DNA from: Mytilus edulis | Taxonomy: Eukaryota | DNA length: 64,000 nucleotides | Direction: 5' to 3' | Assembly (NCBI RefSeq): GCF_963676685.1 | Contig: NC_092357.1 | Coordinates: 52,328,001-52,392,000, forward strand | Shown: positions 12,601 to 42,600 of the stretch, piece by piece | Position numbering within the stretch: the first letter of the stretch is position 1 | How the letters are laid out: each line of letters opens with the position of its first letter | Made by a program: the position numbers and the translations under genes | Notes under the pieces: generated by a model | Databases searched by the model: none | Told to the model about the DNA's origin: nothing | The model's input: the letters and a program-made list of their open reading frames with translations, nothing else

Positions 12601-15600
12601 TACATCTTTCACATAATCAAAGACAAATCAAGAAGCATTCGAATATTAATGTTAATTGAGGGAGCGAAATAACCAAATTACAAGAACATAATAAACGTGT
12701 AATTGGGGAAAAGAGACAGAAACAAGAAACGAAATATTTACTATTTCACTAGCAAATATAGGAGACGTCTTCTGGCAGAGCAAACATTGCTTAATTTTAA
12801 GAAATAGAAGAAACTGATTGTTGAAGGCCGTACAGTGACCTATAGTTGTTAATTTCTGTGTCATTTTGATCTCTTATGGAGAGTTGTCTCATTGGCAATC
12901 ATACCACATCTTCTTTTTATATATATTTAAATCATTTTACAAGACATCAAATTGTCATTTTGTGCTATTGTTGCAGGCAATTCCTCGCAAAAGTTAAAAA
13001 ATGTTTATGTATCTAAAATTTTGTTTTAATTCAATGGAATTTTGCATTTGCATCGGCTTGAAAAAATAAAACCATATAAAGAAGCAACTTCGAACATCTC
13101 TTTACTTTAAGCGGCATTTTCACATGAGTAGAATATAAGGTAAACGTTTGAAACTTTCCGTGGAAGAACGTCAAAATCGTCGTTTTATTAGGAACTTTAC
13201 TGTTCAAGATGGTCACCAGGGTTTACTTTTAAATTATGGGGCCAAATTGCAATATTAAACCAAATTTAAAAGTACATGTATCTGTTATGATTTTTATCTT
13301 TTTTTATATGATTTCAAAAACCAAAGTAGATCGAGTCAGGTGAGCGATGCAGGCTCTTGAGAGTCTCTAGTTTAGTTTAGTGATTTAAATAAATAAAAAA
13401 AAATAAGTCAGAATTTAAATTGTTCCCCCACTAAAGACTCCTCTAAAATCATGAATGGTCATGCTGTACAGTCATCAGAATTTCTTTGCATTGGTACTGT
13501 TACGAATTTACAGTTTAAGAAGGTTTAATATTTCTACAGTTGTATATTTTTCGAAACCTCTATGAATTTTCCATTTGATCTCTTTTTCATTGAAAACGGC
13601 ATTTAAAATCATCCCTTTATTCTTGGTTCCTATCAGACGCTTTACCTGTATAATTGTTGCTAAGGTGCTCTCTTCGAGGTCCGCGTTCGAAGTATATAAA
13701 TAGTGGGTAGCTATGCAGTTCTAATAATACCGACCGTGCAAGGGCTGTATAGCCAGTCAAGGTCGTTAAAAACTTCCATTTGCAGTTCTAATCGTCTGAA
13801 GTACTCGTACTGATCACTACTCACTTTTTGGACAAATCATCATGGAAATCCCCGATGAATTGAGCGCTTTGTTAGCCGCCATGAAGTTGACTGGTAAAGA
13901 ACCTGCCTGGAAGTTCTCGGCAAGTTCTGACAAGGTTACAGTACAGTTGACGTGGACCAAGGCTAAGGAACAAGAGGCATCATCCAGTAAACCCAAGCCG
14001 GCCCTGAAAAAGAGTAAGCCACCATCCTCCAGTAGAAAAGACGCCAAGCGTTACGACCAGTGGATGGCAAACAAAACAGCCGTGGTACCTGCTGCCCAAA
14101 TCCAACAAACCACCATCACGCAAAACGAGGCAAGAGACAGCGTAGTTGGACATGTTGATGTGATTTCCGAGTATTATCACTTAATACTAATATCAGTGAT
14201 ACAATACAATGCTTCTTATTGAACTAACTCACCAAATATACTCTGATACGCTCTGGTTAAGTCTTATTACTTGTACTTTACTCCCGCCAATACGCCAACT
14301 CTCGTTACCTGGTAACTATCCGAGATCTTATCCTGAGTTGGGTAATTATCAATGGATCATCCCGGGAACCGGACTACGCGGTATGTCTAACTACCGTACT
14401 GTCTACATAGTAATGTCACGTCCATTATACTATATTACACAACACTCCTCCCAACTTTGAAAGGAGTGAGTTTACTTCCTATTTGAATATTCACTATATT
14501 CCTTTAGTCCACCCCGTCTGGTCGCACCACGGGGATAAAAAAAAATTAATCTCCAACTATCATGAATGTATATTTCCAATGTTGATCCACATATTAACAA
14601 CACACCTATATATATATAATATATTTATATTCAAAATTCACAATTTCTCCGTTGTCGCTTTGCGGATTCACTTTATAACTAACATATCATTCCTTGATAT
14701 ATATATTGTAAACAATTCCACTTATGGTCTAATTTTCAATTAAAATTTACAGCTGATTTTCTATGTCCACATGAATCTGATCTATATACATATTGTCTCA
14801 TTTTTAAATTATCTTGCGGTCCCAGAGTCCTGGCACCGTGGACATCTAAACTTTAGCATAGTGTCAGCCAGTGCTGGTGTCAAATCTATACAAGCTCCAT
14901 GGTACCATTCATCGCAGAAATCACACTGTATCATAAACAGTCCATCGTCTGGTTTTCTGCACAAACAGTACAAGTCTGGGTTAGTCGCCTTAGTCACATC
15001 TTCACCGTCCTGTAACCGGTGCTGGCACTGTTTTAACCAGGGTGGTACATCTCTGTCCTTACATGGCTTTAAACGGTCATGATTTATTGTCAGTACAGAT
15101 TTTTGTAGTTTTATCTTGTAAACATACGAAGATAATTTTTCACATACAAGTCCTGGACCTTTCCAAGGTGGGTCCAATTTCTTCGCTCTACCTTTAATTT
15201 TTGCTGTGTCTAAAACATAAACTAAATCTCCTATTTTGTATTCTCTTTCCAGAATACGTACATCATAATCACGTTTCATGAATTCTGGGTAGTTTTTAGC
15301 GTATTGCGCGCTATTTCGTGTGCAGATGTTATGGCATCTCGGAGTCTCATCACATACTCATCTTGTGACTCATCTGTTTTAGCACCAGGTACACTGTACA
15401 ATAAATCAACAGGCTGGTTAACCTCTCTCCCAAGCATCAGCATGTTTGGCGTAAAACCAGTACTCCTGTTTACTGACGATCGAACAGCTCCTGCCAACTG
15501 TGCCAAATGTTCATCCCAATTGTCTTGTTGTTTAGACACGAAGCAACGGACTGCGTCCATTAAGGTTCTGTTGCAACGTTCTGCTTGTCCGTTTGATGAT

Positions 15601-18600
15601 GGTCTGTACGGAGTAGTTCTCGCTTTGTGCATTTGCAAGATTTCACAGATGGATTTGAAAAGCTTGCTTTCAAAATTGCGTCCTTGGTCTGTAAAAACCT
15701 GAAATGGGAATCCAAAACGAGATAAAAACTCATTCCCTGCAGCTCTTGCCGTATGCTCTGCGGTTTGAGCTGGTAACGGAATACATTCCATCCATTTGGA
15801 AAACTGGTCAACCATAACTAGTACATGAGCATTCCCAAATTTCGTCTCTGGCAGTGGTCCTAGAAAATCTAAGTGGACTCGCTCCATTGGTGCACCTGCA
15901 TGAAACTGGGTAAGCGGGCATTTAGCCTTTCTGTTTGGCTTCTTGTGTAGATTGCATGTACTACATGTTTTGACAAAGTCTCTTATTTTTTGTGTCATAC
16001 CATACCATTGATATTTTGCCTTAATTCTCAATGTGGTCCTGTTCATACCTTGATGACCTGCAGCAGGAATATCATGACATAATGATATCACTTGTTCAAC
16101 AAGATCTCTTGGTACAACAAGTCTTGGTGTTCTGTCTTTCTTGTCCAAATTTCTCAATATACCATTATCATCTAAATAGAACATATCTTTGTTTATCCAA
16201 TATTTCTTTGCTATTGGACTGCATCTGAATATTGTAGCTTCTGATGGTTCTGTTTTGTCCCTGAACCATACCAGTATTAACTCCAAGTCTGGGTCTTTAG
16301 ACTGATAATCTTGTAATTGTTCTGGTGAAGTACTAGCTTCTATGCCAGTCTCAGTAATGGCATTTACATTTGGAAGGTCCAAATATGTCGCGTAAACTGA
16401 CATACCAAGTGGTGTAGTGACTATTTCAACTGAACTGTGGCAAACATTTTGGTTCTGGCTCACTGTATCTTGATTTGTACTGTCAAATACTTGTTGCTGG
16501 ACCTGAGATGTACCTAAATTTTCGTTCACGTGACTAGTCACGTTCTGGTCCTCATCTTGTGGTATTGAACTGTCTGGTCTAGTATTGTCCTCTGTAATTA
16601 CATGTATATGTTGGGTATTGTCCTGTTTCATTAAATTGTCATCAGAAATCAAAGAACTCGGTAGTACTGTGTGTGGTCCTATAGGTTCAAAACTTTTACA
16701 GTCCTGATGTGAAGCTAAAGGAATAACATTATCTACATCCTCTTGAAAACCAAGCCAACTTTGGTGAGCACGAATACAGTAATCGCATGCTCCACAGGGT
16801 AGATTGTGTTTTAGCACGTTTCCAGCTGCTAATCTATTCTGTGGACAGGCTAAATCTGGCAGACGTGATACTGCGTCCGCATTTTGGTGTCTTTTACCTG
16901 GCCTGTGTTTTACTGTCATGTGATACTGGCTTAGCTCCTCTAGCCATCGAGCTAGTTTTCCTTGTGGCTCTTTAAAGTGCAACAACCATGTTAAACTGCT
17001 ATGGTCTGTACGGACTATAAATTCTCTTCCTAAAAGGTAATGTCTGTAATGTCTGGTGAATTTCACTACAGCAAGCAATTCTTTTCTTGTCGTGCAATAC
17101 CGCTTTTGCTCATGGGTCAATGAAAAACTTCCGTATGCAACTGGACGCTCTACGCCATCGTGGACTTGTATCAACTGTGCTCCAATTGCGAAATTGGAAG
17201 CATCTGTGTCCAAAATAAACGGGTCTTTATTGTTGGGTAATGCCAATAAAGGAGTAGTTGTCAATGCCTCTACAAGTTTGTCAAAAGCCTCTTGCTCTGA
17301 GTCTCTCCATTTGTACGGTTTCTTACCGGTCAATTGATACAAAGGGTAAGACAGATCTGTAAAATTCTTTATGAAAGTTCTATGGTAATTGGCAAAGCCT
17401 AGAAATTGTTCAACCTCTCTGGTTGTCGTAGGTACTTTCCATTTCTTGACAACTTCAACATACTCACTGCCAATAGCCATACCATCTCTATTGATTGTTC
17501 TGCCTAAAAAGTCTATTTCTTTTTTAAAGAAATCACATTTCCTGGGTTTCAATTTGAGCCCATACTCTCTGAAACGTTCAAAAACTGATCGTAAATTCTG
17601 AAAATGGTCTTCAAATGTCTTTCCCATTACTAGAATATCGTCTAGAAAGGCAAGTACAACATTCCATGTTAAACCTCGGAGAACGAGACTCATTACTCTT
17701 GAATATGTCCCTCGGGCATTGCAAAGGCCAAAACTCATTCGGACAAAGTGGAATAATCCGTATTTAGTGATGAAGGCTGTCTTTTCTTTGTCTGAGTCCT
17801 TCACTTTTACCTGATAATACGCACTATTAGCGTTCAATTTTGAAAACCATTCATTTCTTGCCAAAGTGTCCAAACATTCGTCTATCAGAGGAAGCGGGTA
17901 GACATCTTTTTTCGTCACGGAATTCAGTTTCCTGTAATCTATACACCAGCGCACGTTGCCATCGCGCTTGCGCACAAGTACTGGCGCAGATGCCCATTCT
18001 GATATAGATGGTTCTATTATACCTGCATCTAACATTTTCTTTAAATGGCTTTCTTCTTCGTGTGCAATGCACATGGGTGTTCGTCTTATTCGTTGTTTGA
18101 TAGGGCGCGCATCACCTGTATCAATCTCATGTTCAATGTGGCTAAATGTTCCCAAGTCCAAATCATCTAGTGCGAAAACATCAACAAATTCATGAAGTAA
18201 ATTCGCAACTTTGGACTGTTGGTCTTTAGTGAGTGTACTGGATTTATCCAATATGTTCTGTAACTGTTCCGGTCGTGGGTTGTTATCTCTGGCTATTCCA
18301 GTTGTTGCTACTGACGGGGCTGGCCCCGTTTCAACTACATCAGCTTCAATTGCTTCGCCTAGAAGAGTTCCCTTTTGTAAAACTATCTTGTTATTTGTTA
18401 CATTCAGTAAACTGACACATGGCAAAACACTAGCATTGTAATAACCACGTGGGATTAACAAATCTATCTCTTTATTAGGTTCAATTATAAAATCTGTTAA
18501 TTCTGCCGACAAATCTGACTCTAATTGTACAAGTGAATTAGGCGGTATGACTGTTCTATGTGGAACGGTAATTTTAGCAACTCTTGCTATTTTGTTTACA

Positions 18601-21600
18601 GGCGGTACCAGTCCAACATCTCCATGGATCATAGGTAATGCTTCTCCATTGATGAAAAATACCAATTTTCTGTATCACTTTTGCTCTAACAAGAAAATCA
18701 AGTCCTAATACCATGTCATTATCAATTGGCGCAACATAAATATCTGTCCTGTATGTTCTTTCACCAATTTTCAATTCGACTGGTCCCACTACAAATGCAT
18801 CCATATGCATACCACGCCCTGCTGCCTGCATTGTTGTTTTTCTTTTGATGGGTGGTTTCTTAATGAAAGATTCGAAAACTTTGTCGGAAATTATTGTTAC
18901 TTCCGCTGCGGTATCTACTACCGAAATTACTGACTGTCCCTGTACTTTTAATGTGAATCGAAGCATAGATGTTGAACCTAACTGGCAAATAGTTCCTCCT
19001 AAATGTACAGGATCTTGCATCTGAAGGTCAATTACTTGCTGTAAATCATTATCAGGCTGCGTTTTGTGCAATGGTGAATTAGACAAAGTATCTGTAGATG
19101 TTGAATTGTCACATGTTTTTAACGGGGTATTCCCCGAAACAGTTGTCTTGTTAATATCGTTTGAAATAGTGTTCAATGTTAGGCGGTTAGGTTTGGACTG
19201 AGTCAGGGTTCCGCCCTCTAGTCCGACTCTTTCTGGTTTAAAGAATCTGTATAACTACTTCCTGACGGCGACTGTAATTCAGGACAGTCCCGTTGTATGT
19301 GTCCAAACTGATGACAGAAATAGCAAGCCATGTTTGCTAATTTCTCAGGTGGTATGGGTCCCTAGCGCCTTTTGAATGGTGATTGACGCTGGTTATCTTG
19401 CCTATTATCTCTGTTACGTCATTGTTGGCGATTACCTTGCTTGTTGGTTTGCTGGCTAAATGGTTGGGCTGCTGGCTGGACTTCATTCTGTGCAGGAAAC
19501 TGTTTTGCCTGCTGTTGTTTTTGAAACTGCTGTTTAAGGTCGCCTATTTCCTGTTTATACAATGCATCCATAGCAGTCATCTTTTCTAGCAATGTTTCCA
19601 TTTGTTTCGACAATTCTGACTTTGTGTCCGTCTTACCAATAGCATGAACAGCTAAGTCGCTATCATAATCATAACTAGGTTCATCTTGACTTGGTGTTGG
19701 GTCACGTCTACCTGTTGGTTTACCAAATATAGCGGTGTGGTTATGTTGGAACCATTTTATCTGATCAATTGCTGCTTCAACAGATGTTGGTCTGGCTGTG
19801 GCTCCATGTTTACCAGCTTCTTTATCTGAACATCCCTGGCATATTTTCCAGATAGCTTGTGTGTACATATAATTGTCGGGAAGATCTCTAAATGCTTTAC
19901 AGGCTAACGAGAGAACTCGATCTGCCCAATCTTCCAATTTTTCATTTGCATTTTGACGTGCACTCATGAACTGCACTTGCAACGTCTCAGGCAAGTCTTG
20001 AAAGTTAAACCTTTTCTCAAGTTTGTGAATTACATCAAAATAATCCACGCCCTGGTCCCTGTCGATTAAATTTGCATAGTAATCACCTGCTTTGCCATGT
20101 AAACACCAACACAATTGGTCTTTTCGTTCCGTGGTAGTCCACGATAAACGATCAGCATACCTCTGAAACTTGGTGTAAAAAGTTTTCCAACTTGATGAAC
20201 CATCATACTTTAGTCCTTTTGGTGTTTCTAAGTTCTTTGATTTTGGTTTAGCTGGTGGCATTAATTGTGGTGACTCATGATAACTTAAAAATGGTCTAGG
20301 TGTATACATATTTCTGTTCATTGTAGAGGAGTATGCTGGGTTTGGTGTTCTCAAGGAATATACTGGTTCCCTAAAAATTTCTGGTGAAGGTATTCTGCGT
20401 TGAATTTCAGGTAAAGGTATTCTGCGTCTGATTTCTGGTGAAGGTATACGTATTCTGTGTTGAATTTCAGGTGACGGTATCCTACGAGGAATTATAGTTG
20501 ATGGTGTATGTGATTCTAACCGTTGATGACGTCTTGGGACTGGAAAAGGCCTTTCTGTTCTAGGTTTGTGTTCATTGGGTCCTTGCTGCCTTTCCACCTG
20601 TGATGTCTGCTGATGTGGATTATGGTCTCGTGAATAATCACGTGTTTCAATGTTTTCATTGGGACCTTGCTGCCATCCCAACTGTGATGTCTTCTGATTT
20701 GGATTATAGTTACGTGAATAATCACGGTTTTCAATATTTTCATTGGGACCTTGCTGCCATCCCAACTGTGGGTTCTGATGCTGGGTAGCTTGGTGACGTG
20801 AAAATTCACGACTGTCAATATTTTCCTCAACATTTAATCTGATACTTGGTTTCGTGTACCCTAATTTATCTGTTCTATGGATGTTTTCTGGCTTAGATTA
20901 TCTATCACTAGCAAAATCTTGAACTTTATCTTGATCGTCACACTCAGTTTGAAATAACGACTTCTTTTCATCTTGTCTGGAGGTTTTTGATGAGTACCGA
21001 TGGTCTCCATGCTGCATTGTATAATCTAAAACTTTGCTCATTGCTGAACTGGGACGTGATAAATCATGCTTGACTTCCTCACGCTCAGGTTTAAGCAAAT
21101 ATTCATCAGAAGGTGTGTCTGAAAATGAAAAATCTCGAGTTTCTGCATCTTGTTTAGCATGTCCTGAATGAAATGCAGTTGTTTGCACCTCTCCCATGTC
21201 AACATAATCTTGTAACTCATAACTGAATTGTGGCTGCGAAGTGTACTCAGGTTGCTGAATAACCGGTGAAAAATCTATCAAATCTATCAATGCTTCAGTA
21301 ATTTTTAGTCTTGGTATTTCCATAAGATGCTCAGGCTGAATATTACCAAGTGTCTCTCTCATAGACATAATCTTGTCAGCTATAACATTTCCCACACCAG
21401 GCAACAACCTTAATTCTTCATAAGAACAGCTTTTGATTTTAATGCATTGCTGCTGAAAAGCTAATGTTGCCATAATGTTATATTAACACAAATACAATTT
21501 AATTAAATCACTGGTTGCTGAACCTGAGAAAAAAAATTCAATGTGTATGTGCTATGTGGCTATCCACACAAAAAAACGGCTATTTTTTCGGAAAATTGCT

Positions 21601-24600
21601 AATTTATCTGTTGCCGGTTAATTTCGCCATTTTCCGGGCAAAGTTGACAATTTTATCAAACGTGTAACGATTATGCAACAACAATTTGTAAACACTGTAA
21701 TTAAAGCAAGTTTTTATGCTTATTGTATATCCGTGTTCAAACACTTCATTGTAGCAAACGAACTCCGCAATTACACGTGACGTACTCACTTCTGTGTCTC
21801 GCTCCAAATTCTTCTTTTCCGCAGGAAACCCTGCTCGCCAAGCGCCAGTGATATGATTTCCGAGTATTATCACTTAATACTAATATCAGTGATACAATAC
21901 AATGCTTCTTATTGTACTAACTCACCAAATATACTCTGATACGCTCTGGTTAAGTCTTAGTACTTGTACTATACTCCCGCCAATCGGTCAACTTGTTACC
22001 TGGTAACTATCCGAGATCTTATCCTGAGTTGGGTAGTTATCAATGGATCATCCCGGGAACCGGACTACGCGGTATGTCTAACTACCGTACTGTCTACATA
22101 GTAATGTCACGTCCATTATACTATATTAAACAACAATGTATTCACACCAACTAAGTACAAAGGGGAACCAGTTGGGGTTGTAGTCAATAGGGATATTGTC
22201 ATCAGTCCCTACAACCCCAACAAGGCCTACCACCGCCTGGTATTTTACACCTCAACAAATGACAGAGGCAAGCGCAGTAGGATCGACTTCGAAGAAGGGT
22301 TTGACATCGACGACCCAGACCTACTGCGCACACCACCACACACATCGCCCGTCATCAATGAAGAATTCAAAGAGGCAATGCAAACAGTCATACTAGCAGC
22401 ACGACCTGATACTCCGTGCCAGCAACACCAACGCAGTCGAAGTAAAATGAAGGCCAAAAGACAAACAGACTCCGGTCTATAAAATAGATTATTACAGTCC
22501 GCAATATCCAGACAGGATAGCCGGACGTGAAACATCTACATATCATCATTATCATCAGTTCTAATCGTCATTTGTACCGAAGACAGCAGACAGTAAACAT
22601 CGGAAAGGAAGTAGTTTATAGCAGGCAGTAGGTTTAGATTAAGTAAAGTGAAGTGCTTGGAACCTGCGGACAGAATAGAGAATGGGCTGAGACTGTTGGT
22701 TCGGTACAGATTGGCCAAACAGGGCTGGTGCTAAGGTTTTGCGTCTCACATCTCTCACTATTGCAGTGAGTGTTTGCTGACATACCATGCCTCAGTGCTA
22801 TCCAGTTGTTCCGACAGTTATAGACATGCTTATTAAATAAAGTTTTATACCTTTTAAGTTTCAGCCTAGTTTGATACATTTAGGTTCAGTCCCGTTTTAT
22901 ACATTTAGGTTTCAGCCGGTTTGATACATTTCGGTTTCAGACCGTTTGAATCATTTCGGTTCAGCCCCGTTTTATACATTAAGGTTTTAAGACCCGTTCC
23001 ATACTTTCAGGTTTCAGACCAGTTCCAAACATTTAGGTTTCAGACCAGTTCCAAACATTTAGGTTTCCGACAATAGTGCCAAACCGTCTGACCAGTTTCA
23101 TACATTTAGGTTTCAGACCAGTTTCATAATTTAGGTTTCAGACCAGTTTCATACATTTAGGTTTCAGACCATTTCATAATTTAGGTTTCACAAAAACATA
23201 GTAGGTGTGTTCGAATAGCTATTTTTGACTGAAAGTACTTGACGACAGTCTTTCAAGTTGGATGATGAAAATGCATATCTTCGAAAAATTATATTTTTTT
23301 TGTGTGTGCTTACTAGGGGTTTATAGTCTTTAACCACTAAAGAAATCTAGTCTGCCCTTACACGAAATATTTAATTAGATTTTTTTTTAAATGTTTATGA
23401 ATTTTCGAAAATTCCATCTGACAACCGATCCACGGCCGACACTCGGCTAACCGAGAGATAGGTCGGTTAATCTATATTGAGTATGCGGCTATATCGGCGG
23501 TTGGTCTGTTAATCGGGTTGGTTATACGTCTGTTAAGAGTAAAACGCACAATTTTAATATTAAAATATATTTAATATACAGATTTTAGGTACATTATAAG
23601 AATCAAATCAAAAAAAGAAAAGTGTCTGACAAAATGGTATATATCATAGAACATTTTCCAACTGTAAAAACATTTCATAGTCTGCGCAGTTTTCAGTAAA
23701 ACTAAAAGGCGTCGCGCAAGTATGTAGTATTTATGCTTATACGCATAGCAATTTTTGTAATGAAAGGCGAAAAAACAATTTTAGATATCATTTAAAGGAC
23801 ACAAAATCGTACTTTGGTTCTAAAATATAAATTGAAATTAGTAAATATTTCATAATTGTAATATAACGTGAGTAATACCACGTTTTAGTGAATATTATGG
23901 GAATAAAGTCTGTTAATGGGTTGGACAATTGAAATTGTGTCAGTTAAGAGTTATTTAGCCACGACAATAGTTGTGCTACCTTTATATTTTCCCTTTGAAA
24001 AAGTTAAGAATGAGATGCTCTTGAGTAAAAAAATATGACAATACGCTGCAACAGTATCCTTCTAGTAAGAACATTTTTATTTTGACTTCCTTTGCATTTT
24101 ATTAAGAGGTGTGTCACTTCAAAATATATGGATATGGATTGCCTGCTGGAATATGCATGAATCTATTATTAACGTTTTCTTCAGCCTTAATTTTTGTGTC
24201 TGTTCAAAGTAGCACGTTCTCAAATCCGTCCGAAAGTGTCTTTCTAATACAACACAGGGTACATATAACGTGTTGTCGTTCTCATATGCACATGATATTT
24301 GTCACTGGACGTTTAACTCTAAATCGTCAACATCATCCGATTGGTTTTTTTCTTCTATTACTGAATCATCTGTTGTTTACAAATCAGTCTAAAGAAGTAA
24401 ATGGAAAGAAGCGAATGCAGCTACATTTGGTTATCTTAAGTTTTAATTCATTTTATTCCGTTTAGTTCCTTTCTACATAAGTGCAGAGGAGAACTGCAGT
24501 TGTCCGCATGTAAACTTTTAGCATTTATTACCAATATGAGTACATAGCAATCCGTTACTGTTTCAACACCCAGGGGTGTTTCATGTATTTATTCCCAAAC

Positions 24601-30600: not shown

Positions 30601-33600
30601 ATGAAATTCACACTTCTGCATGTTTATATATGTCTCTGGTTAAGAGAACCGTCTTGAGGTGTGTATTATAACACACTTTTTTTTATCCCCAAAAAACAGT
30701 TAGTAGAGGAGATGCGTATTATACACAAATACAGACGGTTTTCTTAAATTATTATTACATTGTACTTTTTTCAATTTTTTTTTTTAAACTGTTTTTCTTC
30801 ATTATTTGATATTTTAAATCACAAAAATATTTTATTGTATGATTTACTTTTATAACTATATACATATCTGAAATCTATTAAATATAAATCGTACATCTTA
30901 ATCTAGAACCTTAGAAAGTTTACTTTACTTTTTTGATTATTAGATGATTAATAGCTATGCCAAATAGTCATCTAGGCCCTTCTAGTCACGTTATTAGATG
31001 ATGAACGAACAAAGACTTAAAATGAGATTAATGTCCACTCAGTCTAAAAGTATGTCACAGTAGACAGGAAGTTGGAATAAAAAAACAAAAAATTCAAATT
31101 ATCTTCTTTATTAATATTACAGTTCATATCTAGATAAAACTTGGTGAATATGTTTTTTTTTTATGTTATTGTGAACATAATAAGATGTTAAGTAAAAAAT
31201 CGTGAATTTTCCCAAATGGATTTTTTTTTACATGAAAGGGCCATTGTTGAAGATGCAGGTGAGCGACATATGCTGTTTAGAGCCTCTAGTTTCTTTTTGT
31301 AATGCATTAGAATAGAAATAATAAAGCATAATTATATTGTTTTTTTAAACTTTTTATTTGGAATTAATTTGGAAGCCATAGATTTTTTGCATGTGTATAG
31401 TTACTAAAGTGTTCTATCAAACTGTCAACCAATGGACAAATCTGATTCAAATACTTGTTGATATTGATATAACAATTTAGATTACTTCATCAATTGGACA
31501 GATCATATCAATCCATTCATGGAAACATATACAAACTAAAAATCTTTGAAGTTTCTTATGTTTGTCATTTGGGAACGGTTCACTGCTTCACCAGTTGATG
31601 ATAACAGTAAAATGATAATATGATTCTCTTCTTCAGCCAACTTCTAGAAATGCCAAACTTCAAATATTTTGGGAATGCTACATTTGATCACTTGACTAAT
31701 TTACAAAGTTTGTAAGTATATTTGTATGAGATCACGTAAAACAAATTTACAAAGTTTGTAAGTATATTTGTATGAGATCACCTAAAACCAATTTACAAAG
31801 TTTGTAAGTATATTTGTATGAGATCACCTAAAACCAATTTACAAAGTTTGTAAGTATATTGGTATGAGATCACCTAAAACCAATTTACAAAGTTTGTAAG
31901 TATATTTGTATGAGATCACCTAAAACCAATTTACAAAGTTTGTAAGTATATTTGTATGAGATCACCTAAAACCAATTTACAAAGTTTGTAAGTATATTTG
32001 TATGAGATCACCTAAAACCAATTTACAAAGTTTGTAAGTATATTTGTATGAGATCACCTAAAACCAATTTACAAAGTTTGTAAGTATATTGGTATGAGAT
32101 CACCTAAAACCAATTTACAAAGTTTGTAAGTATATTGGTATGAGATCACCTAAAACCAATTTACAAAGTTTGTAAGTATATTTGTATGAGATCACCTAAA
32201 ACCAATTTACAAAGTTTGTAAGTATATTGGTATGAGATCACCTAAGACAAATTAAAAATCTGCTGCAACAGTTCACCAGAAGTCAGTAAGGGTGCAGACA
32301 CATTCTTCTTTTAATCTTACCTGATTATAATTTTACTATTTCTTCAATAGTCAACAGGTTACATTCACTTGATATCAATTCTTTATTTAAAAGAATAGTT
32401 ATGAAGTAAAACTTTCCTGTCTCCTCTGATTTGCTGATTGTGATGTCATTAAAAAAGAGGAACATTTTTGAAGATAATTATAAGAGAAGGATTATGTTTG
32501 CCAACCTATCGGCTAAAAACTTTAGAGAAATAGATTTTATCACTCTATGACGTCCTATAACATATCTCCATTCAAAACTAATACCTTTTCAATTTATATT
32601 AGAACATATAAGTCTTCAGTTTTATATATCACATTCCATAAAGTGATAGAAAGAAAATTTCTGTTATAATTCCAACAGTCTTGAATGAATGTATGTTTTT
32701 AATTAACAGGACTATTCATTCCACAAGTCTGATTCAGTTCCCTGACATATCTACAACTCAGATGGAGAAAATGTAAGTTTAATCTTAACAGGCAATGAGA
32801 TAAACTGCTATAAGACAGTTCAATCTTTCTCAGAAACCGATGCTCAGCCTCAAAAGCTTTTTGGGGGTTGTCTATAGAATTTATATTAGCAACTAACATG
32901 TTAAAATTTTTAAGATTTTATTTTCTCATACTATCATAAACTTTGTATGAATAAAGTATACATTTCAGTTTATCTCCCCTGACTAAGGCCATGGCAGATA
33001 GAAACTGTTGTTTCTTTGTAATATATTATGTTTATCCGCCCTGACTAATCATTCAGCCAATGGACATACAGGTGGTTACTGTTGTTTCTATGTAATATAT
33101 TATGTTAAACTCTCCTGACTAGGGATTCAGACCATGGACATACAGGTGGTTACTGTTGTTTCTATGTAATATAGTATGTGTATCTCCCCTTACTAAGGAT
33201 TCAGGCAATGGTCGATGGTTACTGTTGTTTCTTTGTAATATATTCTACTTATCTCCCCTGACTAGGGATTCAGGCCATGAACATACAGGTGGTTACTGTT
33301 AATTCTATGTAATATATTCTGTTTATCTCCCCTGACTAGGGATTCAGGCCATGGGCATACAGATAGTTATTGTTGTTTCTATGTAGTATATTACGTTTAT
33401 CTCCCCCTGACTCAGTATTTAGGCCATGGCAAAAAGTTAGTGTTGATTCTATGTAATATATTATGTTCATCTCCCCTGACTAGGGATTCAGGCAATGGAC
33501 ATACAGATAGTCACTGTTGTTTCTTTGTAATATATTATGTTTATCTTCCCCGGATTAAGCATTCAGGCCATGGACATACAGGTGTTTACTGTTGTTCGTT

Positions 33601-36600
33601 TCTATGTAATATATTATGTTAATCTCCTCTGACTAATGGTCAAGGCAATAGACATACAGATAGTCATTGTTGTTTCTTTGTAATATATTATATTATCTCC
33701 CCCTGACTAAGCATTCAGGCCATGGCAGATAGTTACTGTTGATTCTATGTAATATATTATGTTCATCTCAGCTGACTTATGATTCATGCCATGGACATAC
33801 AGATAGTCACTGTTGTTTCTTTGTAATATATCATGTTAATCTCCCCTGATTAAGCATTTAGGCGATGGACATACAGGTGGTTACTGTTGTTTCTATATAA
33901 TATTATGTGTATCTCCCCTTACGAAGGATTCAGGCAATGGTCGGTGGTTACTGTTGTTACTTTGTAATATATTATGTTTATGATAATATCTTCCCCTGAC
34001 TAAGCATTCAGGCCATGGACATACAGATAGTTATTGTTGTTTCTATTTAATATATTATGTGTATCTCCCCTGACTAATGATTCAGGCCATGGACATACAG
34101 ATAGTCACTGTTGTTTCTTTGTAATATATTATGTTTATCTCCCCCTGACTAAGCATTCAGGACATGGCAGATAGTTACTGTTGATTCTATGTACTAATAA
34201 TCTATTATGTTTATCTCCCCTGACTAATGATTCAGGCCATGGACATACAGGTGGTTACTGTTGTTTCTAAGTAATATATTATGTTTATCTCCCCTGACTA
34301 AGCATTCATGCCATGGACATACAGGTGGTTACTGTTGTTTCATTGTAATAGATTATGTTTATCTCCCTTGATTAAACATTTAGGCCATGGGTATACAGGT
34401 GGTTATTGTTGTTTCTATGTAATATGATATATGTATCTCCTCTGACTAAGGGTTCAGGCAATGATCGGTGGTTAATATTGTTTCTTTGTTATATATTATG
34501 TTCATTCCCCCTATCTAAGGATTCAGGCCATTGACATCCAGGTAGTTACTGTTGTTTCTATGTAATATATTATGTTTATCTCCCCTGACTAAGGATTCAG
34601 GCCATGGATATACAGATAGTCACTGTTGATTCTTTGTAATATATTATGTTCATTCGTCCTGACTAAGAATACAGGCCATGGACATACAGGTAGTAACTGT
34701 TGTTTCTTTGTAATATATTATGTTATCTCCCCTGACTTAGCATTCAGGCCATGGCAGGTAGTTACTGTTGTTTCTATGTAATATATTATGATTATCTCCC
34801 CTGACTAAGGAATAAGGCCATGGACATACAGATAGTTTCTGTTGTTTCTATGTAATATATTATTTTTATCTCCCCTGACTCAGCATTCAGGCAATGGCAG
34901 ATAGTAACTTTTGTTTCTATATAATGTATAATGTTCATCTCCCCTGACTAAGGATTAAGGCCATGGACATACAGGTAGTCACTGTTGTTTCTATGTAATA
35001 TATTATGTTTATCTCCATTGACAAAGCATTCAGGCCATGGCTGATAGTTACTGTTGTTTCTATGTAGTATATTATGTTTATCACCCCTGACTAATGATTC
35101 AGGCCATGGACATACAGATAGTCACTGTTGATTCTTTGTAATATATTATGATTATCTCCCCTGACTAAGGATTAAGGCCGTGGACATACAGGTAGTTACT
35201 GTTGTTTCTATGTAATATAATATTCTTATCTCCCCTGATTAAGCATTCAGGCAATGGCGGATAGTTACTGTTGTTTCTATAAAATATATTATGTTTATCT
35301 CCCCTGACTAAGCATTCAGACCATGGCAGATAGTTACTGTTGTTTCTATGTAATATATTATGTTTATCTCCCCTGACTCAGTATTCAGGCCATGGATATA
35401 CAGGTAGTTTTTGCTGTTTCTTAGTAATATAATATTCTTATCTCCCCTGACTAAGCATTCAGGCCATGGCGGATAGTTACTGTTGTTTCTATAAAATATA
35501 TTATGTTTATCTCCCCTGACTCAGCATTCAGGCCATGGCCATACAGATAGTTACTGTTTTTTCTATGTAATATATTATGTTTATCTCCCCTGACTAAGGA
35601 TTAAGGCAATGGACATACAGGTAGTTACTGTTGTTTCTATAAAATATATTATGTTTATCTCCCCTGACTCAGCATTCAGGCCATGGACATACAGATAGTT
35701 ACTGTTTTTTCTATGTAATATATTATGTTTATCTTCCCTGACTCAGCATTCAGACCATGGCAGAGTGTTACTGTTGTTTCTATGTAATATACATGTTTAC
35801 CTCCCCTGACTCAGTATTCAGGCCATGGATATACAGGTTTACTTCTGTTTCTATGTAATATAATATTCTTATCTCCCCTGACTAAGCATTCAGGCCATGA
35901 CAGGTAGTTACTGTTGTTTCTTTGTAATATATTATGTTTATTCCCCTGTCTAAGGATACAGGCCATGGACATACAGTTAGTTACTGTTGTTTCTTAGTAA
36001 TATATTATGTTTATCTCCCCTGACTAAGCATTCATGCCATGGACATCCAGGTAGTTACTGTTGTTTCTATGTAATATATTTTGGTTATCTCCCTTGATTC
36101 AGCACTCAGGCAATGGACATACAGGTGTTTACTGTTGTTTCTATGTAATATATAATGTGTATCCCCTGACTAACGATTCAGGCAATGGTCAGTGGTGATT
36201 GTTGTTTCTTTGTAACATATTATGTTTATCTCCTCTGACTAGGGATTCAGGCCATGGACATACAGAAAGTAACTGTTTTTTCATTGTAATATATTATGTT
36301 AATATCCCCTGACTAAGCATTGAGGTCATGGTAGATAGTTACTGTTGATTCTCAGAGGCGGATTTTAGGGGGGGGGCAGGGGGCCCGGCCCCCCCTTTTG
36401 GGAAAAAATTTGGTTGCTTATATAGGGAATCACTGAAGCGTGACTGGAGCGGGCCCCCTCTTAGGTCAGTCAGTGGGCCCCCACTTATGAAAAATTCTGG
36501 ATCCGCCACTGATTCTATGATTCTGTTCATCTGCCCTTACTAGGGATTCAAGCCATGGAGATACAGATAGTCACTGTTATTTCTTTGTAATGTATTTTGT

Positions 36601-39600
36601 TTGTCTTCCCCTGATTAAGCATTCAGGCCATGGACATACAAGAGGTTACTGTTGTTTCTATGTAATATATTATGTTTATCTCCCCTGACTAATGATTCAG
36701 ACCATGGACATACAGATAGTCACTGTTATTTCTTTGTAATATATTTTGTTTGTCTTCCCATGATTAAGCATTCAGGCCATGGACATACAGGTAGTTACTG
36801 TTGTTTTTATGTAATATATTATGTTTATCTCCCCTGAATAGGGATTAGGCCACGGACATACAGGTAGTCACTGTTGATTCTTTGTTATATTTTATGTTTA
36901 TCTCCCCCAGATTAAACATTCAGGTCATGGACAAACAGGTGGTTACTGTTGTTTCTATGTAATATATTATGTTTATTCTCCCTGACTAAGGATTCAGCCC
37001 ATGGACATACAGTTAGTTACTGTTGTTTCTTAGTTAATATTATGTTTATCTCCCTAGCTTTCAGCCAATGGACATCCATGTAGTTACTGTTGTTTCTATG
37101 TAATATATTATGTTTATCTCCCCTGACTCAGCATTCAGACAATGGCAGATAGTTACTGTTGTTAATCTATGTAATATATTATGTTTATCTGCCCTGACTA
37201 AGGGTTCAGGCAATGGTCGGTGGTTACTTTTGTTTCTTTGTAATATATTATGTTTATTCTCCCTGACTAAGGATTCAGCCCATGGACATACAGTTAGTTA
37301 CTGTTGTTTCTTAGTTAATATTATGTTTATCTCCCTAGCTTTCAGCCAATGGACATCCATGTAGTTACTGTTGTCTCCCCTGACTAAGCATTCAGACAAT
37401 GACAGATTGTTACTGTTGATTCTATGTAATATAATATGTTTATTTCCCCTGACTAGGGATTCAGGCCATGGACATACAGATAGTCTCTGTTTTTTCATTG
37501 TAATATATTATGTTTTTCTCCCCTGACTAAGTATTCAGGTCATGGCAGATTGATACTGTTGATTCTATGTATTATATCATGTTAATCTCCCCTGACTAAG
37601 CATTCGGACCATGGACATATAGATAGTCACTGTTGTTTCTTTGTAATATATTATGTTTATCTCCCCTGACTAGGGATTCAGGCCATGGACATACAGGTAG
37701 TTACTGTTGTTTCTATGTAATATATTATGTTTATCTCCCCTGACTAGGGATTCAGGCCATGGACATACAGATAGTCACTGTTGTTTCTTTGTATAATATT
37801 ATGTTTATCTCCCCTGACTAGGGATTCAGGCCATGGACATACAGATAGTCACTGTTGATTCTTTGTAATACTTTATGTTTATCTCCCCCTGATAAGGCAT
37901 TCAGGCCATGGACATAATGGTGGTTACTGTTGTTTCTATGTAATATATTATGTTTATCTCCCTCGACTAAGCATTTAGGCCATGGCAGATAGTTACTGTT
38001 GTTTCTATGTAATATATTATGTTTATCTCCCCTGACTAAGCATTCAGACCATGGACATACAGGTGGTTACGGTTGATTTTATGTAATATATTATGTTTAT
38101 CACCCCTGACTAGTGATTCAGGCCATGAACATACAAATAGTCACTGTTGATTATATGTAATATATTATGTTTATACCCCCCTGACTAAGCATTCAGGCCA
38201 TGGCAGATAGTTAGTGTTGATTTTATGTTATATATTATGTTTATCTCCCCTGACTAGGGATTCAGGCCATGGACATACAGATAGTCACTGTTGTTTCTTT
38301 GTAATATATTATGTTTATCTCTCCTAACTAAGCATTCAGGTCATGGCAGATAGTAACTGTTGTTTCTATGTAATATATTATGTGCATCTCCCCTGACTAG
38401 GGATTCAGGCAATGGACATACAGGTGGTTACTGTTGTTTCATTGTAATAGATTATGTTTATCTCCCTTGATTAAACATTTAGGCCATGGGTATACAGGTG
38501 GTTATTGTTGTGTCTATGTAATATATTATGTTCATTCGTCCTGACTAAGAATTCAGGCCATGGACATACAGGTGGTAACTGTTGCTTCTATGTAATATAT
38601 TATGTTTATCTCCCCTGACTAAGGATTTAGGCCATGGACATACAGTTAGTAACTGGCGTTTTTAAGTAATATATTATGTTTATCTCCCCTGACTAAGCAT
38701 TCAGACCATGGACATGCAGGTAGTTACTGTTGTTTCTTTCTAATATATTTTGTTTATCTCCCCTGACTTAGGATTCAGGCAATGGTTATACAGGTAGTTA
38801 CTGTTGTTTCTTTGTAATATATTATGTTAATCTTCCCTGATTCAGCTTTTAGGCAATGGACACACATGTGGTTACTGTTGTTTCTATGTAATATATTATG
38901 TTCATCTCCCCTGACTGAGCATTCAAGCCATGGCAGGTATTTACTGCTATTTCTTTGATACATATGTTATTTTTATCTCCCCAGACTTAACATTCAAGCC
39001 ATGGCAGGTAGTTACTATTGTTTCTTTGTAATATACTAGTATTATGTTTATCTCCCCTGACTAAGCATTCAAGCCATGGCAGGTATTTACTGTTTTGTCT
39101 TTTAAACATTTATTATTTTTATTTCCCCTGACTATGCATTCAAGCCATGGCAGGTAGTTACTGTTGTTTCTTTGTAATATATTATGTTTATCTCCCCTGA
39201 CTAAGGATTCAGTCCATGGACATACAGGTAGCTACTGTTGTTTCTATGTAATATATTATGTTTATCTCTACTTACTAAAGATTCAGGCCATGGCAGGTAG
39301 TTACTGTTGTTTCTTTGTTATATTTTATATTCATTTCCCCTGACTGAACATTCAAGCCATGGCAGGAAGTTACTGCTGTTTCTATGTAATATATTATGTT
39401 TATCTCCCCTGACTTAGCATTCAAGCCATGGAAGGTAGTAACTGTTGTTTCTATGTAATGTATCATGTTTATCTCCCCTGACCAAGCATTCAGGCCATGG
39501 CAGGTAGTTACTGTTGTTTCTTTGTAATATTTTATATGTATCTCCCCTGACTAAGGATTCAGGACATGAACAGGCGGGTTGTTAATGTTTTTTTCTTTGT

Positions 39601-42600
39601 CATATATTATGTTTATATCCCCTGACTGTCACTAAGCATTCAGGCCATGGCAGGTAGTTGCTGTTGTTTCGTTCTATAAACAATACTTTTAACATTACAA
39701 TTTTTGTTACTTATGAACTAAATTGTTAATTGGTGATTTTTACTTTTGCTGTTTAGGAGTTATTGCCCTTTATTGTTTGAACAATGACACAAATAAATGT
39801 AATACAAGCCCAATTTGCTGTTATTTTGATAACCTCTTGTTAAACATGTTACATACCAGCTTGACCTTGACATATTAGAACACCAGCAATCACTGTTAAA
39901 CATAAATATGTTTGATTTTGTAGGAAAATCGACCTTATTAGACCACATTTTTGTCTGACATAGATCAGCATGACCTGAACAGACAATGGACATTTCTGTT
40001 GTGACCGACCGTGCAAGGGCTGTATAGCCAGTCAAGGTCGTTAAAAACTTCCATTTGTTGATTTCTGTTGTATTTATTATTTTAATGTATGTTTTTAGGA
40101 TGCTTTGTGACAACCAGATAAAGTTTTTCCAACACAACCATACAAATCCAATATGGCCATCAACCCTGAAGAGATTGTAAGTCTTATATGTAAAAGCAGT
40201 ATGTTGTTTTGAACTGTGTTCTGCCAATTATAAGGAATCTTTGGAATGCGTAGGTCATCTAATACCGTGTTCACACTATAAAATCTGCTCCGGGTTGAAC
40301 TCAAATTAATAAATCCGCATTAGTTACCCCAGTTCACACTTGATAAAAAATTAACCCGGTTTTGGATTTTCCCTCTCAACACAAATAGAAATGTTAGCGC
40401 CAAAATTGTAACCCCGCATCTATCCACTGTACATATTTACATTTTTGTATCAGTAAAGATACATTATTTGAAAGTCTGATATTTTTTACCGCACTCCTGG
40501 CCGCTTTGGAGGAGTTCAATCACCATCAACCACTTTCCGTGTCTACAAATAACGTCACTTTATCCAAAATTAAATTGCACCCATTTTTCGCCCTTACACA
40601 GTCCGATGCGGTTCAAATAGAACAAAGGAATTCGACCTCTTGTGTTTAAAAGGTAGAAAAGTGAAATGAATTTCGTATACGGTTGTCAAGATGTCTCAAA
40701 AGTTACTTTCCGTAAAGTCATTATAAATATTTACATTCACGTTGTTTAATTTTCATATTGTACAATTGTTAACAATGCAACTTGCAAACAATCGCTTTTA
40801 AAACAACCATAAGTCAAGCTGTTACGTCATTTAGGGAATTTCCTTATAAACTGCTACTATTTTTTGCCCGACATAGAAAAAATCTGGGGAAAATTACCAA
40901 AATTGAGAATTGAATTGTCAATCGTTTAAGACCATTAGGCACACCTAAATTTGACATTTGTACGCAATTTCAAAGTTGGATGTTATATGACGGGGTTTTG
41001 TTAATTAATTTACGCATTGAACACACCCGTCCTATATATGTAACATCACATGACTTTTAAGTGATTAAAACTATTTTTTTCAAAATAATATTTGCATGTC
41101 TGACATGTTTTTTTTTCTTAAACAATTATAATTACACCGACAGTCATAACTATTGTATTATTTAAAAAAGTTGTGTTACACGTTTTGTTACACCTTAGTT
41201 ATACACCTTAGATTGGTTGACCATTGTGAAGTTGAGTTTTTGGGGTAGCATAGATTTTTAAGACAGACAGCTAGATATCATAAACATACTATGTATACAC
41301 AAGCCAGAGTCTGAGCTTGATTTGCTATATGATATAAAAACTAAACTGACGAAAGAAGGTTATTTATTCAAAATCATAAAATGCAAAAAATACATTTTGC
41401 AAATAAAACATTTGACATAAAAGTTCATATTAAATATGAAATAATAATACATAATTAATACGAAATTACATCAACTAATATCATGTCAATTGAATAAATG
41501 ACAAAGAATAGCAAAGGTGGGGAGAAAAATCTGCCACAAATCCACTCTTAGGCTGAAAGAGCGGATCCCCCACCCGAGGACTCTGACGACGTGAATACAA
41601 TTATATATGACTTGAAAAAAAAAAATACATTCACATACATGTACACCAAACACATATCACTTTATTATGTAAAACGTTTCCACATTCAGCAGAAATATTA
41701 AAAGTTCATATTATCATATACCAAGATATTACTGGTAAAAATTATTAAAGGTGTAAATCTTATTCCGGCCAGCGAAAATTCAAACAAAACTAAAGTACAT
41801 TTTTACGAAGCCCTGGATCCTTCCTAAATACGAAGTTTTATATCTGACTATTTCTGTAAGGGATCATGAGCAAAGGATTCTCATACTACACTTGACATTT
41901 TTCAATCGAAAATGTATAAATATAAAAAAGAAGATGGTATGATTGCCAATGAGACAGTTCACCACAAGAGACCAAAATGACACGGAAATTAACGACTATA
42001 GATCATCGCACGGCCTTCAACAATGAGCAAAGCCCATATTGCATAGTCAGCTATAAAAGGCCCCAAAATGACCATGTAAAACAATTCAAACAAAAAACTT
42101 AAATGTAACACATAAACAAACGACAACCACTGAACTACAGGCTCCTAACTTGGGACAGGCACATACATACATAATGTGGCGGGGTGAATTCCATAGGGTA
42201 AAAGTTTTTAAATTGAAATTAGTAAATAAGTATTTAGTGTAAACCTTATTTAGCTCTCAGTTAATTTTGTTGTGATCCGAATTGGTTATATCGTTGTATT
42301 CCTTTTGTTTGCGTTAACCAATTGTCGTTCGGATTTTTTTTTTTTTTATATACATCGTTTATTGATCTTGCAATTTCTTGTAATTTACTTTGCGTCTTAT
42401 TTCTTTGGTGTCATATTTTGGCTATGGTTGTGTTCGATCATACTGCAGAATAATAAGTCGGTAGTTGCCCGCGAATGGATTTTTTATTTATTTCTTGTGA
42501 CTCTTTGCGTGTCTTATTTGTTTATTGCAGTCGGTTTTTGTTTTGTGTCATGCGGGGATATGGTGTGGTGTGATTTTGTTTTTCTTTTGATGTGTTTGCA

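Follow-up and report, generated by a model that had tools for sequence, protein, structure and literature searches.

How a reading frame cut in two by a Gypsy retrotransposon came to lie behind a TATA box is the question raised by the window, the 64,000-nt stretch of Mytilus edulis DNA analysed here (NC_092357.1, positions 52,328,001 to 52,392,000). An earlier note had proposed that excision of the Gypsy restores the frame, and the proposal was borne out. Neither half of the ORF (314 nt and 343 nt) contains a stop codon, and the two join into 219 codons once the element is removed, with the TSD ATGT on either side (14152-14155 and 22136-22139); shuffling left one half stop-free in 129/20,000 trials and the other in 135/20,000. 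The 5′ part (13797..14155, plus strand) consists of a 45-nt leader and codons 1-104, with the ATG at 13842, and the 3′ part with the stop codon occupies 22140..22482 on the same strand. The upstream TATATAAA at 13693, the AATAAA at 22836 and all sequence motifs quoted for the rebuilt protein are present, and the Gypsy lies 463 bp from the TATA box, in keeping with the estimate of about 460 bp. Nesting inside an LRR gene of the same orientation is likewise supported, though by pattern prediction only, of LRR-like plus-strand exons on both sides (6531 upstream; 31637, 52246, 54065, 56254 and 58772 downstream), the single upstream exon being the weakest of the predicted set. The interrupting element (14156..22135, minus strand) carries gag with HhH, protease, RT, RNase H, integrase, an SH3-like domain and, behind the integrase, a PHD finger (Pfam E 1.2e-9), as the earlier suggestion of PHD-guided targeting presupposes; its coding region is spread over several separate frames. 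Its LTRs (14156-14444 and 21849-22135) share 277 identities with 10 mismatches and 2 gaps (K2P 0.036), and 28 other matches to the LTR were found.

TATA box, ORF and AATAAA follow one another in order on one strand, and they had been read as a compact gene carried as cargo by a bigger element, mobile or viral, of which the neighbouring 26-bp array was taken as the sign. Membership in a mobile element stood; the single gene and the array as carrier mark did not. A 14-bp TSD (13783..13796 and 22556..22569, plus strand) parts the ORF from both the TATA box and the AATAAA. Outside it lies a pre-existing LTR, whose 5′ part (13498..13725, plus strand) starts with TGTTACG, matches the empty copy L062 with 215 identities and 14 mismatches, and carries the TATA box (13693..13700, plus strand). 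The remainder (22570..23190, plus strand) contains the AATAAA (22836-22841) and a 25-26-bp array (22841-23190); the window LTR ends early, where 14 other copies run on. Its promoter pattern has 88 exact matches, and all 14 of 14 empty LTR copies keep TATA, AATAAA and array without the ORF. Since the TSD fences the ORF off and the empty LTRs retain both signals, the ORF is not a self-contained Pol II gene; TATA, AATAAA and array are parts of the host LTR that was hit. A second, diverged copy of the ORF unit (L082) does sit in the same LTR family, as a cargo gene would, but the empty sites refute that reading, the flanks of other copies are unrelated, and no viral sequence or fold match was obtained. 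We therefore give it almost no probability.

The split ORF is instead the sole gene of a non-autonomous non-LTR retroposon of about 775-790 bp, referred to below as the cassette. Scored candidates matched its two halves in 110/140 and 150/150 cases (216 found), and cassette matches number at least 150. Homology among 29 other fetched copies ends about 60 bp 5′ of the ATG and at a (CAT)n tail. In the window, the 3′ end consists of a stem-loop (22497..22526, plus strand; 5-bp stem, CAA/GC internal loop, 5-bp stem; z −5.0), folded as in I/Nimb-type LINE 3′ ends, and an AAAC-spacer with the (CAT)n tail (22527..22555, plus strand). TSDs could be called at 55 of 131 loci and measured 7-18 bp, with one of 169; the copies bearing them range from 138 to 937 bp with fixed 3′ ends, and 29/54 are 5′-truncated by more than 60 nt. 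The cassette thus shows the marks of target-primed reverse transcription, namely TSDs of variable length, a fixed 3′ end with a simple-repeat tail, and variable 5′ truncation. No reverse transcriptase or endonuclease was found in its one ORF, which has no Pfam match. Leaders vary from 44 to 81 nt across copies, and full-length copies begin at the same 5′ start across subfamilies, which could reflect an internal promoter.

Uninterrupted homologues, on which the earlier reading of the frame depended, do exist as intact copies of 212-224 aa, and conservation at the codon level was confirmed. The ORF is under purifying selection: comparison of its two halves in the window with 10 copies gave dN/dS of 0.22-0.36 (every p ≤ 1.2e-3). 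SINEs are defined as non-coding in the part of PMC5786205 available, and the selected frame sets the cassette apart from them. Retrocopies processed from a normal host gene would also be intronless, TSD-flanked and 5′-truncated, with a frame under selection. In the cassette, however, poly(A) is replaced by a LINE stem-loop and (CAT)n tail, the near-identical, dispersed copies fall into several subfamilies that diverge to dS >1, and the homologues are themselves intronless and without name; we consider a retrocopy origin very improbable.

Codons 1-104 are predicted to form a helix, a beta-hairpin and a basic helix, with a model pLDDT of 74 for this N-terminal part and 63 for the full protein. 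The family had been described as unidentified, and Pfam indeed returned nothing on the halves or the intact copies. An Atlas search with the protein gave no usable match, and Foldseek against viral and PDB structures gave 0 hits at E ≤ 0.001, its PC4/Pur-alpha rows appearing only at E 0.5-1.8, which we do not trust. The best Z in a VIA fold comparison was 2.9, and 0/32 pattern matches in viral contigs were confirmed, an absence that is weak as evidence. The protein contains TQT motifs, which we take to be of the LC8-binding type, and it shares its N-terminal module with single-ORF elements that target tRNA genes. Several database gene models start with the cassette. No RNA dataset was listed as containing it, and 4 of 19 runs examined were contigs of presumed kind that attest presence only.

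Which enzyme copies an element of this kind is suggested by its 3′ end. The cassette 3′-end model matches four EN-RT LINE copies, all from a single family, at their 3′ ends; fold and loop letters are alike, whereas stems and tail differ, the LINEs ending in (GAA)n or (AAC)n, not (CAT)n. In an alignment of 7 distinct rows from cassettes and LINEs, which are related sequences arranged around a chosen structure, 97% of cells pair and 6/10 pairs have changed on both sides; inside the cassette family no covariation of the stem-loop was seen. The matching LINEs encode a zinc-knuckle ORF1 and an EN-RT-RNase H ORF2 (RNase H was scored in L418 and L079, and in L422 seen solely via similarity to that region), and the label Nimb refers to this domain layout rather than to a tree. 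When an autonomous LINE bearing the stem or the tail of the cassette was sought by pattern, almost nothing but the cassette family came up, and no such LINE combining the exact stem with the (CAT)n tail was found. A Penelope/Naiad partner, considered for the preference for TA repeats noted in the available part of PMC8557442, was rejected: no TSD was callable, and the fold of the 3′ end speaks for I-group LINEs. Copying by an I/Nimb-type LINE is likely.

The same 3′ end would be expected if the cassette were an ORF1-only derivative of a LINE family lying outside our sample, with the cassette protein as that family's ORF1. A single ORF with a LINE-type 3′ end is the layout of HAL1, HeT-A and Ag-Sponge (PMC5786205, available part), and our sample covers 150 of 2203 RNase H-region candidates. 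Against this stands the comparison of the family profile with the ORFs of 20 fetched LINE loci, whose best E was 0.44, no match; sampled LINE ORF1s bear zinc knuckles, and, as judged by sequence, the cassette protein is not the ORF1 of the sampled I/Nimb LINEs. The 9 longer homologues include no LINE ORF, and no ORF2 lies in phase behind the cassette frame in 20 divergent loci read for 7 kb downstream. The sole adjacent LINE, at L079, has its own 12-bp TSD, and a cassette-LINE chimera there was rejected. We regard an ORF1 derivative as quite unlikely.

The position of the window copy behind a TATA box follows a rule. Cassette copies lie in sense orientation about 22-35 bp behind TATA boxes. 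Among the 54 copies with a TSD used here, TATAWA occurs at −29..−18 in sense at 23 and in antisense at 1, against a background of 31/1080 windows (2.9%) and a local shuffle mean of 2.2 (maximum 10), while TATAWAW with ≤1 mismatch at −24..−19 occurs at 39/54 in sense versus 2/54 in antisense (background 9.8%), both test windows having been picked after data inspection. The strict box is missing at 31/54 sites and even a near match at 15/54. Full-length (11/24) and truncated (12/29) copies are both represented among the TATAWA-positive ones, and the 54 target sites are mostly unrelated, with 1 related pair.

The claim of a second retro-insertion at the window promoter also proved correct. It is a 55-bp non-coding retroposon with a hairpin and tail (13726..13780, plus strand; 12-bp TSD at 13714-13725 and 13781-13792), which has 857 exact matches, shows the TATAWA geometry in 6/19 TSD calls in sense and 0 in antisense, and sits at the start site in 6/30 host-LTR loci. 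The two insertions at this promoter are an instance of a general targeting rule rather than chance. LINE copies with a TSD, a small sample, had TATAWA in sense in 3/11, in antisense in 0 and with ≤1 mismatch in 5/11; 9/20 LINE 3′ ends yielded no TSD. LINE L421 and cassette L014 occupy the same base of one repeat, and full-length LINE L422 occupies the corresponding promoter position in a related, homologous repeat. As a negative control, families outside the I group yielded 3 poly(A) sites with TSD, 0 of them with TATA, which is too few TSDs. Because the LINEs and the 55-bp element share with the cassette both the 3′ stem-loop design and the TATA geometry, targeting likely stems from LINE machinery that the cassette borrows and that works at Pol II start sites, and we infer that the TATAs are working promoters.

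The LINE protein might, alternatively, read the TATA sequence itself and cut at a fixed distance; element and partner would be the same, no transcription complex would take part, and promoter borrowing would be a by-product. The spacing is very sharp (11 of the 23 loci at −22), as a sequence ruler would predict, and other LINEs are said to owe their choice of target mainly to the endonuclease (PMC4494074, available part). Yet the bias is one-sided (23 versus 1) although TATATA is near-palindromic, the LTR promoter was hit repeatedly, and the TATA at the L422 site, a single case, is 2 mismatches away. This makes a sequence ruler unlikely in our judgement.

We thus favour, as the probable explanation, a single-ORF retroposon lacking reverse transcriptase that inserts in sense behind TATA boxes, is likely copied by an I/Nimb LINE at likely Pol II start-site cuts, and likely borrows its promoter. 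The LINE ORF2 protein would bind the cassette 3′ stem-loop in trans, and the machinery would be brought to a TBP-anchored initiation complex or cleave DNA opened there. TATA boxes usually stand about 30 bp from the start site; with such spacing the TSD would span about −9 to +4. A new copy would then be transcribed from the promoter at its landing site. Given its basic helix and TQT motifs, the small protein may be an ORF1-like adaptor that serves its own RNA in cis, in packaging or in transport. In the window, the LTR would have come first, then the cassette at the LTR start site and, likely after it, the 55-bp element there too; the Gypsy would have broken the ORF some time after the cassette arrived.

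A wider reading is possible, and we advance it tentatively: mussel I-group LINEs cut opened Pol II promoters behind TATA and serve a superfamily of single-ORF passengers with a shared, portable N-terminal adaptor module that had no name so far. One branch would use Pol II start sites and an I/Nimb 3′ end, the other would insert inside tRNA genes and end in poly(A), and the helix/beta-hairpin/basic-helix module, distinct from LINE ORF1, would allow an RNA that lacks a promoter to take over unrelated LINE enzymes.

LINE insertion behind TATA at many unrelated loci, if true, offers a testable model coupling target-primed reverse transcription to transcription initiation, and such a system would be a natural promoter-trap mutagen of mussels. 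With a selected protein unrelated to the partner's ORF1, the use of a passenger protein to its own RNA could be tested cleanly. For annotation, this element accounts for dozens of Mytilus proteins labelled 'uncharacterised'. We found no published description of the cassette or of TATA- or start-site-targeted LINEs in a search that left subscription journals, Repbase Reports and supplements mostly outside; within those limits the habit was not found in print for I-group LINE systems, and the cassette may already be present in some curated repeat library.

A known case of base-precise, oriented insertion at start sites is Ty3 of S. cerevisiae, which TBP/Brf1 leads to integrate where Pol III starts (PMC6673722, available part). 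Ty3 and the cassette both show a fixed register at the transcription start and a TSD in the region that opens, but Ty3 is an LTR element that uses an integrase at Pol III genes, whereas the cassette uses target-primed reverse transcription behind a Pol II-type TATA, a register known from spacing alone. Tx1-Mar, Tx1-8_Crp and Keno with SINEU resemble our system in that a passenger and the LINE hit the same targets within other transposons, and transcription from the flank has been proposed for them (PMC4494074, available part, where 'TATA' occurs 0 times). Tx1 LINEs favour one sequence family and, unlike the cassette partner, bear no RNase H; the cassette uses 54 mostly unrelated sites with a common TATA at a fixed distance. 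HAL1 (L1), HeT-A (Jockey) and Ag-Sponge (CR1) are ORF-bearing non-autonomous LINEs that, like the cassette, have one protein, no reverse transcriptase and a LINE-type 3′ end and, as is likely for the cassette, are moved in trans, but they encode their partner's ORF1p (PMC5786205, same part); the cassette shares its 3′ end with an autonomous LINE, its likely partner is of the I group, and its ORF has no ORF1p homologue among the 20 LINE loci. Related too are the bivalve Nimb LINEs of the I group and the Nimb-dependent Meta/V SINEs, for which the available texts mention no TATA-anchored insertion, with 'TATA' occurring 0 times (PMC10294476) and 'transcription start' 0 times (PMC11481361). They likewise share a 3′ end with an EN-RT-RNase H LINE and have similar TSD lengths (PMC10294476, PMC11481361, PMC4758252, available parts), and the cassette differs from these SINEs in being a protein-coding passenger.

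A Gypsy element lies on the minus strand at 14156-22135. Its LTRs, 289 and 287 bp long, share 277 identities (divergence, 0.036), and its target-site duplication (TSD) is ATGT. The flanking 314 and 343 nt, neither containing a stop, sum to 219 codons. This confirmed the claim of the earlier note that the Gypsy element splits one rebuildable ORF, the 218-codon frame of the unit here called the cassette. In a domain search (14809-15357 and 20898-21482, minus strand), the integrase proved to be followed by a PHD finger, and gag to begin with an HhH motif; the Gypsy LTR has 30 matches in the genome. LRR-like plus-strand exons are predicted on either flank, in agreement with the proposed LRR surroundings; the introns of the LRR gene hold tandem arrays of 46 bp (31698-32253), 74/69 bp (33004-39627), 209 bp (47680-49130), and 34 bp (52299-52914).

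The TATA box (13693), AATAAA (22836), 26-bp array (22841-23190), and second small insertion were all located as that note had described, and it had read TATA, ORF, and polyadenylation signal as one gene and the array as a mark of the ORF's carrier. However, the sequence outside the cassette TSDs is a repeat, and 14/14 fetched copies are empty at the cassette site and carry TATA, AATAAA, and array without the ORF. Thus, what stands of that reading is a mobile-element ORF with a conserved frame; the single gene is a stack of four insertions, and the array belongs to the host repeat. Copies of the latter begin with TGTTA and are paired, with a purine tract ahead of the second copy, and hence LTR-like. 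This host LTR family (13498-23190; L062-L075 and L357-L386) has an internal 25-26-bp array and pair spacings of 1.7-1.8 kb or 4.3-5.2 kb; the window copy ends at 23190, where other copies continue. The start site of this family acts as a hotspot for insertions. As for the order of arrival, the host LTR would already have been present in the intron when the cassette inserted at its start site; a 55-bp element would then have entered the same start site, since in the reverse order the cassette's register would be off by 67 bp. The Gypsy element would have inserted inside the cassette ORF.

The two ORF halves have at least 110 and at least 150 matches in the mussel's own genome, and the window cassette is bounded by a 14-bp TSD (13783 and 22556). 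In 29 other copies, homology extends from roughly 60 bp ahead of the ATG to a (CAT)n tail lying 70 bp past the stop codon. TSDs were callable in 55/131 loci, and removal of one segmental duplicate left 54 copies, with TSDs of 7-18 bp (one of 169), lengths of 138-937 bp, and fixed 3' ends; the exceptional copy (L004:1270-2390) has a 169-bp duplication on its flanks where others have a short TSD. The uninterrupted copies with codon-level conservation that the earlier note had called for were found: dN/dS was 0.22-0.36 between the window halves and 10 copies and 0.16-0.43 for all other pairs except one near-identical pair (1.18), in a sample of long open copies, a choice that biases the ratio downward. 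These data indicated that the frame is under purifying selection and that the cassette is a protein-coding non-LTR retroposon without reverse transcriptase. Named database homologues are models from Mytilus edulis and M. coruscus, and further homologues reach up to 30-40% identity. Six gene models (P0044, P0098, P0099, P0101, P0005, and P0032) start with the cassette protein and continue into fused host domains; these fusions are likely annotation joins at insertion sites. A diverged subfamily (L246:6315-6994; about 33% protein identity) has the same outer stem as the cassette, and no close matches to it were found in the genome that holds the window.

In 23/54 cassette copies, a TATAWA motif begins between 18 and 29 bp upstream of the TSD, 11 of them at -22. 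The corresponding figures were 31/1080 for background windows and 1/54 for the opposite side, and shuffling gave at most 10; this window and that of the following test were picked after inspection of the data, and every other 12-bp window gave 6 or fewer. With one mismatch allowed, the motif was present at 39/54 sites versus 2/54 on the opposite side (background, 9.8%). Only one pair of copies has related target sites. Selection for expressed copies does not account for the pattern, because truncated copies show it equally (12/29 versus 11/24 full-length copies, strict motif). Counted from the first T of TATA, the TSD spans about +22 to +35, which textbook TATA-to-start-site spacing would place at the start site.

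The second retro-insertion reported at the same promoter was borne out as the 55-bp element (13726-13780), a member of the group sharing this TATA geometry. It is non-coding, has 857 exact matches, and ends in a hairpin-AAAAC-tail similar to that of the cassette. Among 30 loci chosen regardless of flank, 6/19 TSD calls showed the geometry in sense and 0 in antisense orientation; the element sits at the start site in 6/30 host-LTR loci. Since it is non-coding, the targeting rule does not require the cassette protein. The same sequence (also L186-L215) forms the 3' end of a non-coding element of about 600 bp, whose copies end in TA repeats.

A covariance model built from 26 cassette 3' ends and run over 27 sources matched four copies from a single EN-RT LINE family at their 3' ends, and two LINE families fold into the same two-stem structure as the cassette, with the same CAA/GC loop. 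In an alignment of seven distinct rows, which are related and whose structure was picked by the analyst, 97% of cells pair and 6/10 pairs changed on both sides. These LINEs encode a zinc-knuckle ORF1 and an ORF2 with EN-RT-RNase H, which is the I-group layout; Nimb, a two-ORF I-group clade, is listed for bivalves in PMC10294476. Of 42 LINE loci, 20 have a visible 3' end and 11 a TSD, with strict TATA in 3/11 in sense (antisense, 0) and 5/11 within one mismatch. LINE L421 and cassette L014 occupy the same site in two copies of one repeat. Pattern searches for a LINE that combines the cassette's own stem with a (CAT)n tail yielded none, which counts against these LINEs as the cassette's probable partner. 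Several RNase H-bearing LINE families (L387-L436) have an intact ORF2 of 1260-1310 aa and 3' UTRs of 1.1 to >1.7 kb.

The assignment of the rebuilt protein to no known family held, as Pfam, Foldseek, and other structure comparison gave no family or fold match, and profile comparison gave none with ORF1 of the sampled LINEs. The predicted structure comprises a helix, a beta-hairpin, and a confidently modelled basic helix, followed by a stretch predicted to be disordered, which contains TQT and S/T-P motifs, and then by another hairpin. Residues 1-80 match the 289-298-aa protein of poly(A)-tailed single-ORF elements of about 1.6 kb (probability 92%, E 7e-7; 67 matches to their N terminus; L277-L279 and L282-L311, e.g., L284, L287, L295, L299, L306, and L308). 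By eye, 23/26 of their tails lead into the 3' portion of a tRNA gene immediately past the D-loop, with 14 distinct flanks; an overly strict regex recovered 11. The elements occupy a single position in many different tRNA genes. More distant single-ORF families (L312-L326; about 280-305 aa) lie within or adjoining tRNA arrays or clusters at 7/15 loci by ARAGORN, with one more having two doubtful calls; L321 additionally has a Tx1-like LINE adjoining tRNA genes. Because targeting works without the cassette protein, yet its frame is kept, we favor a role for it as a cis-acting packaging or transport adaptor.

Literature searches found no published report of the cassette element or of TATA-anchored I-group insertion. 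The closest systems are ORF-bearing non-autonomous LINEs (PMC5786205), Tx1/SINEU pairs, which share targets (PMC4494074), and Ty3, which inserts at Pol III start sites (PMC6673722).
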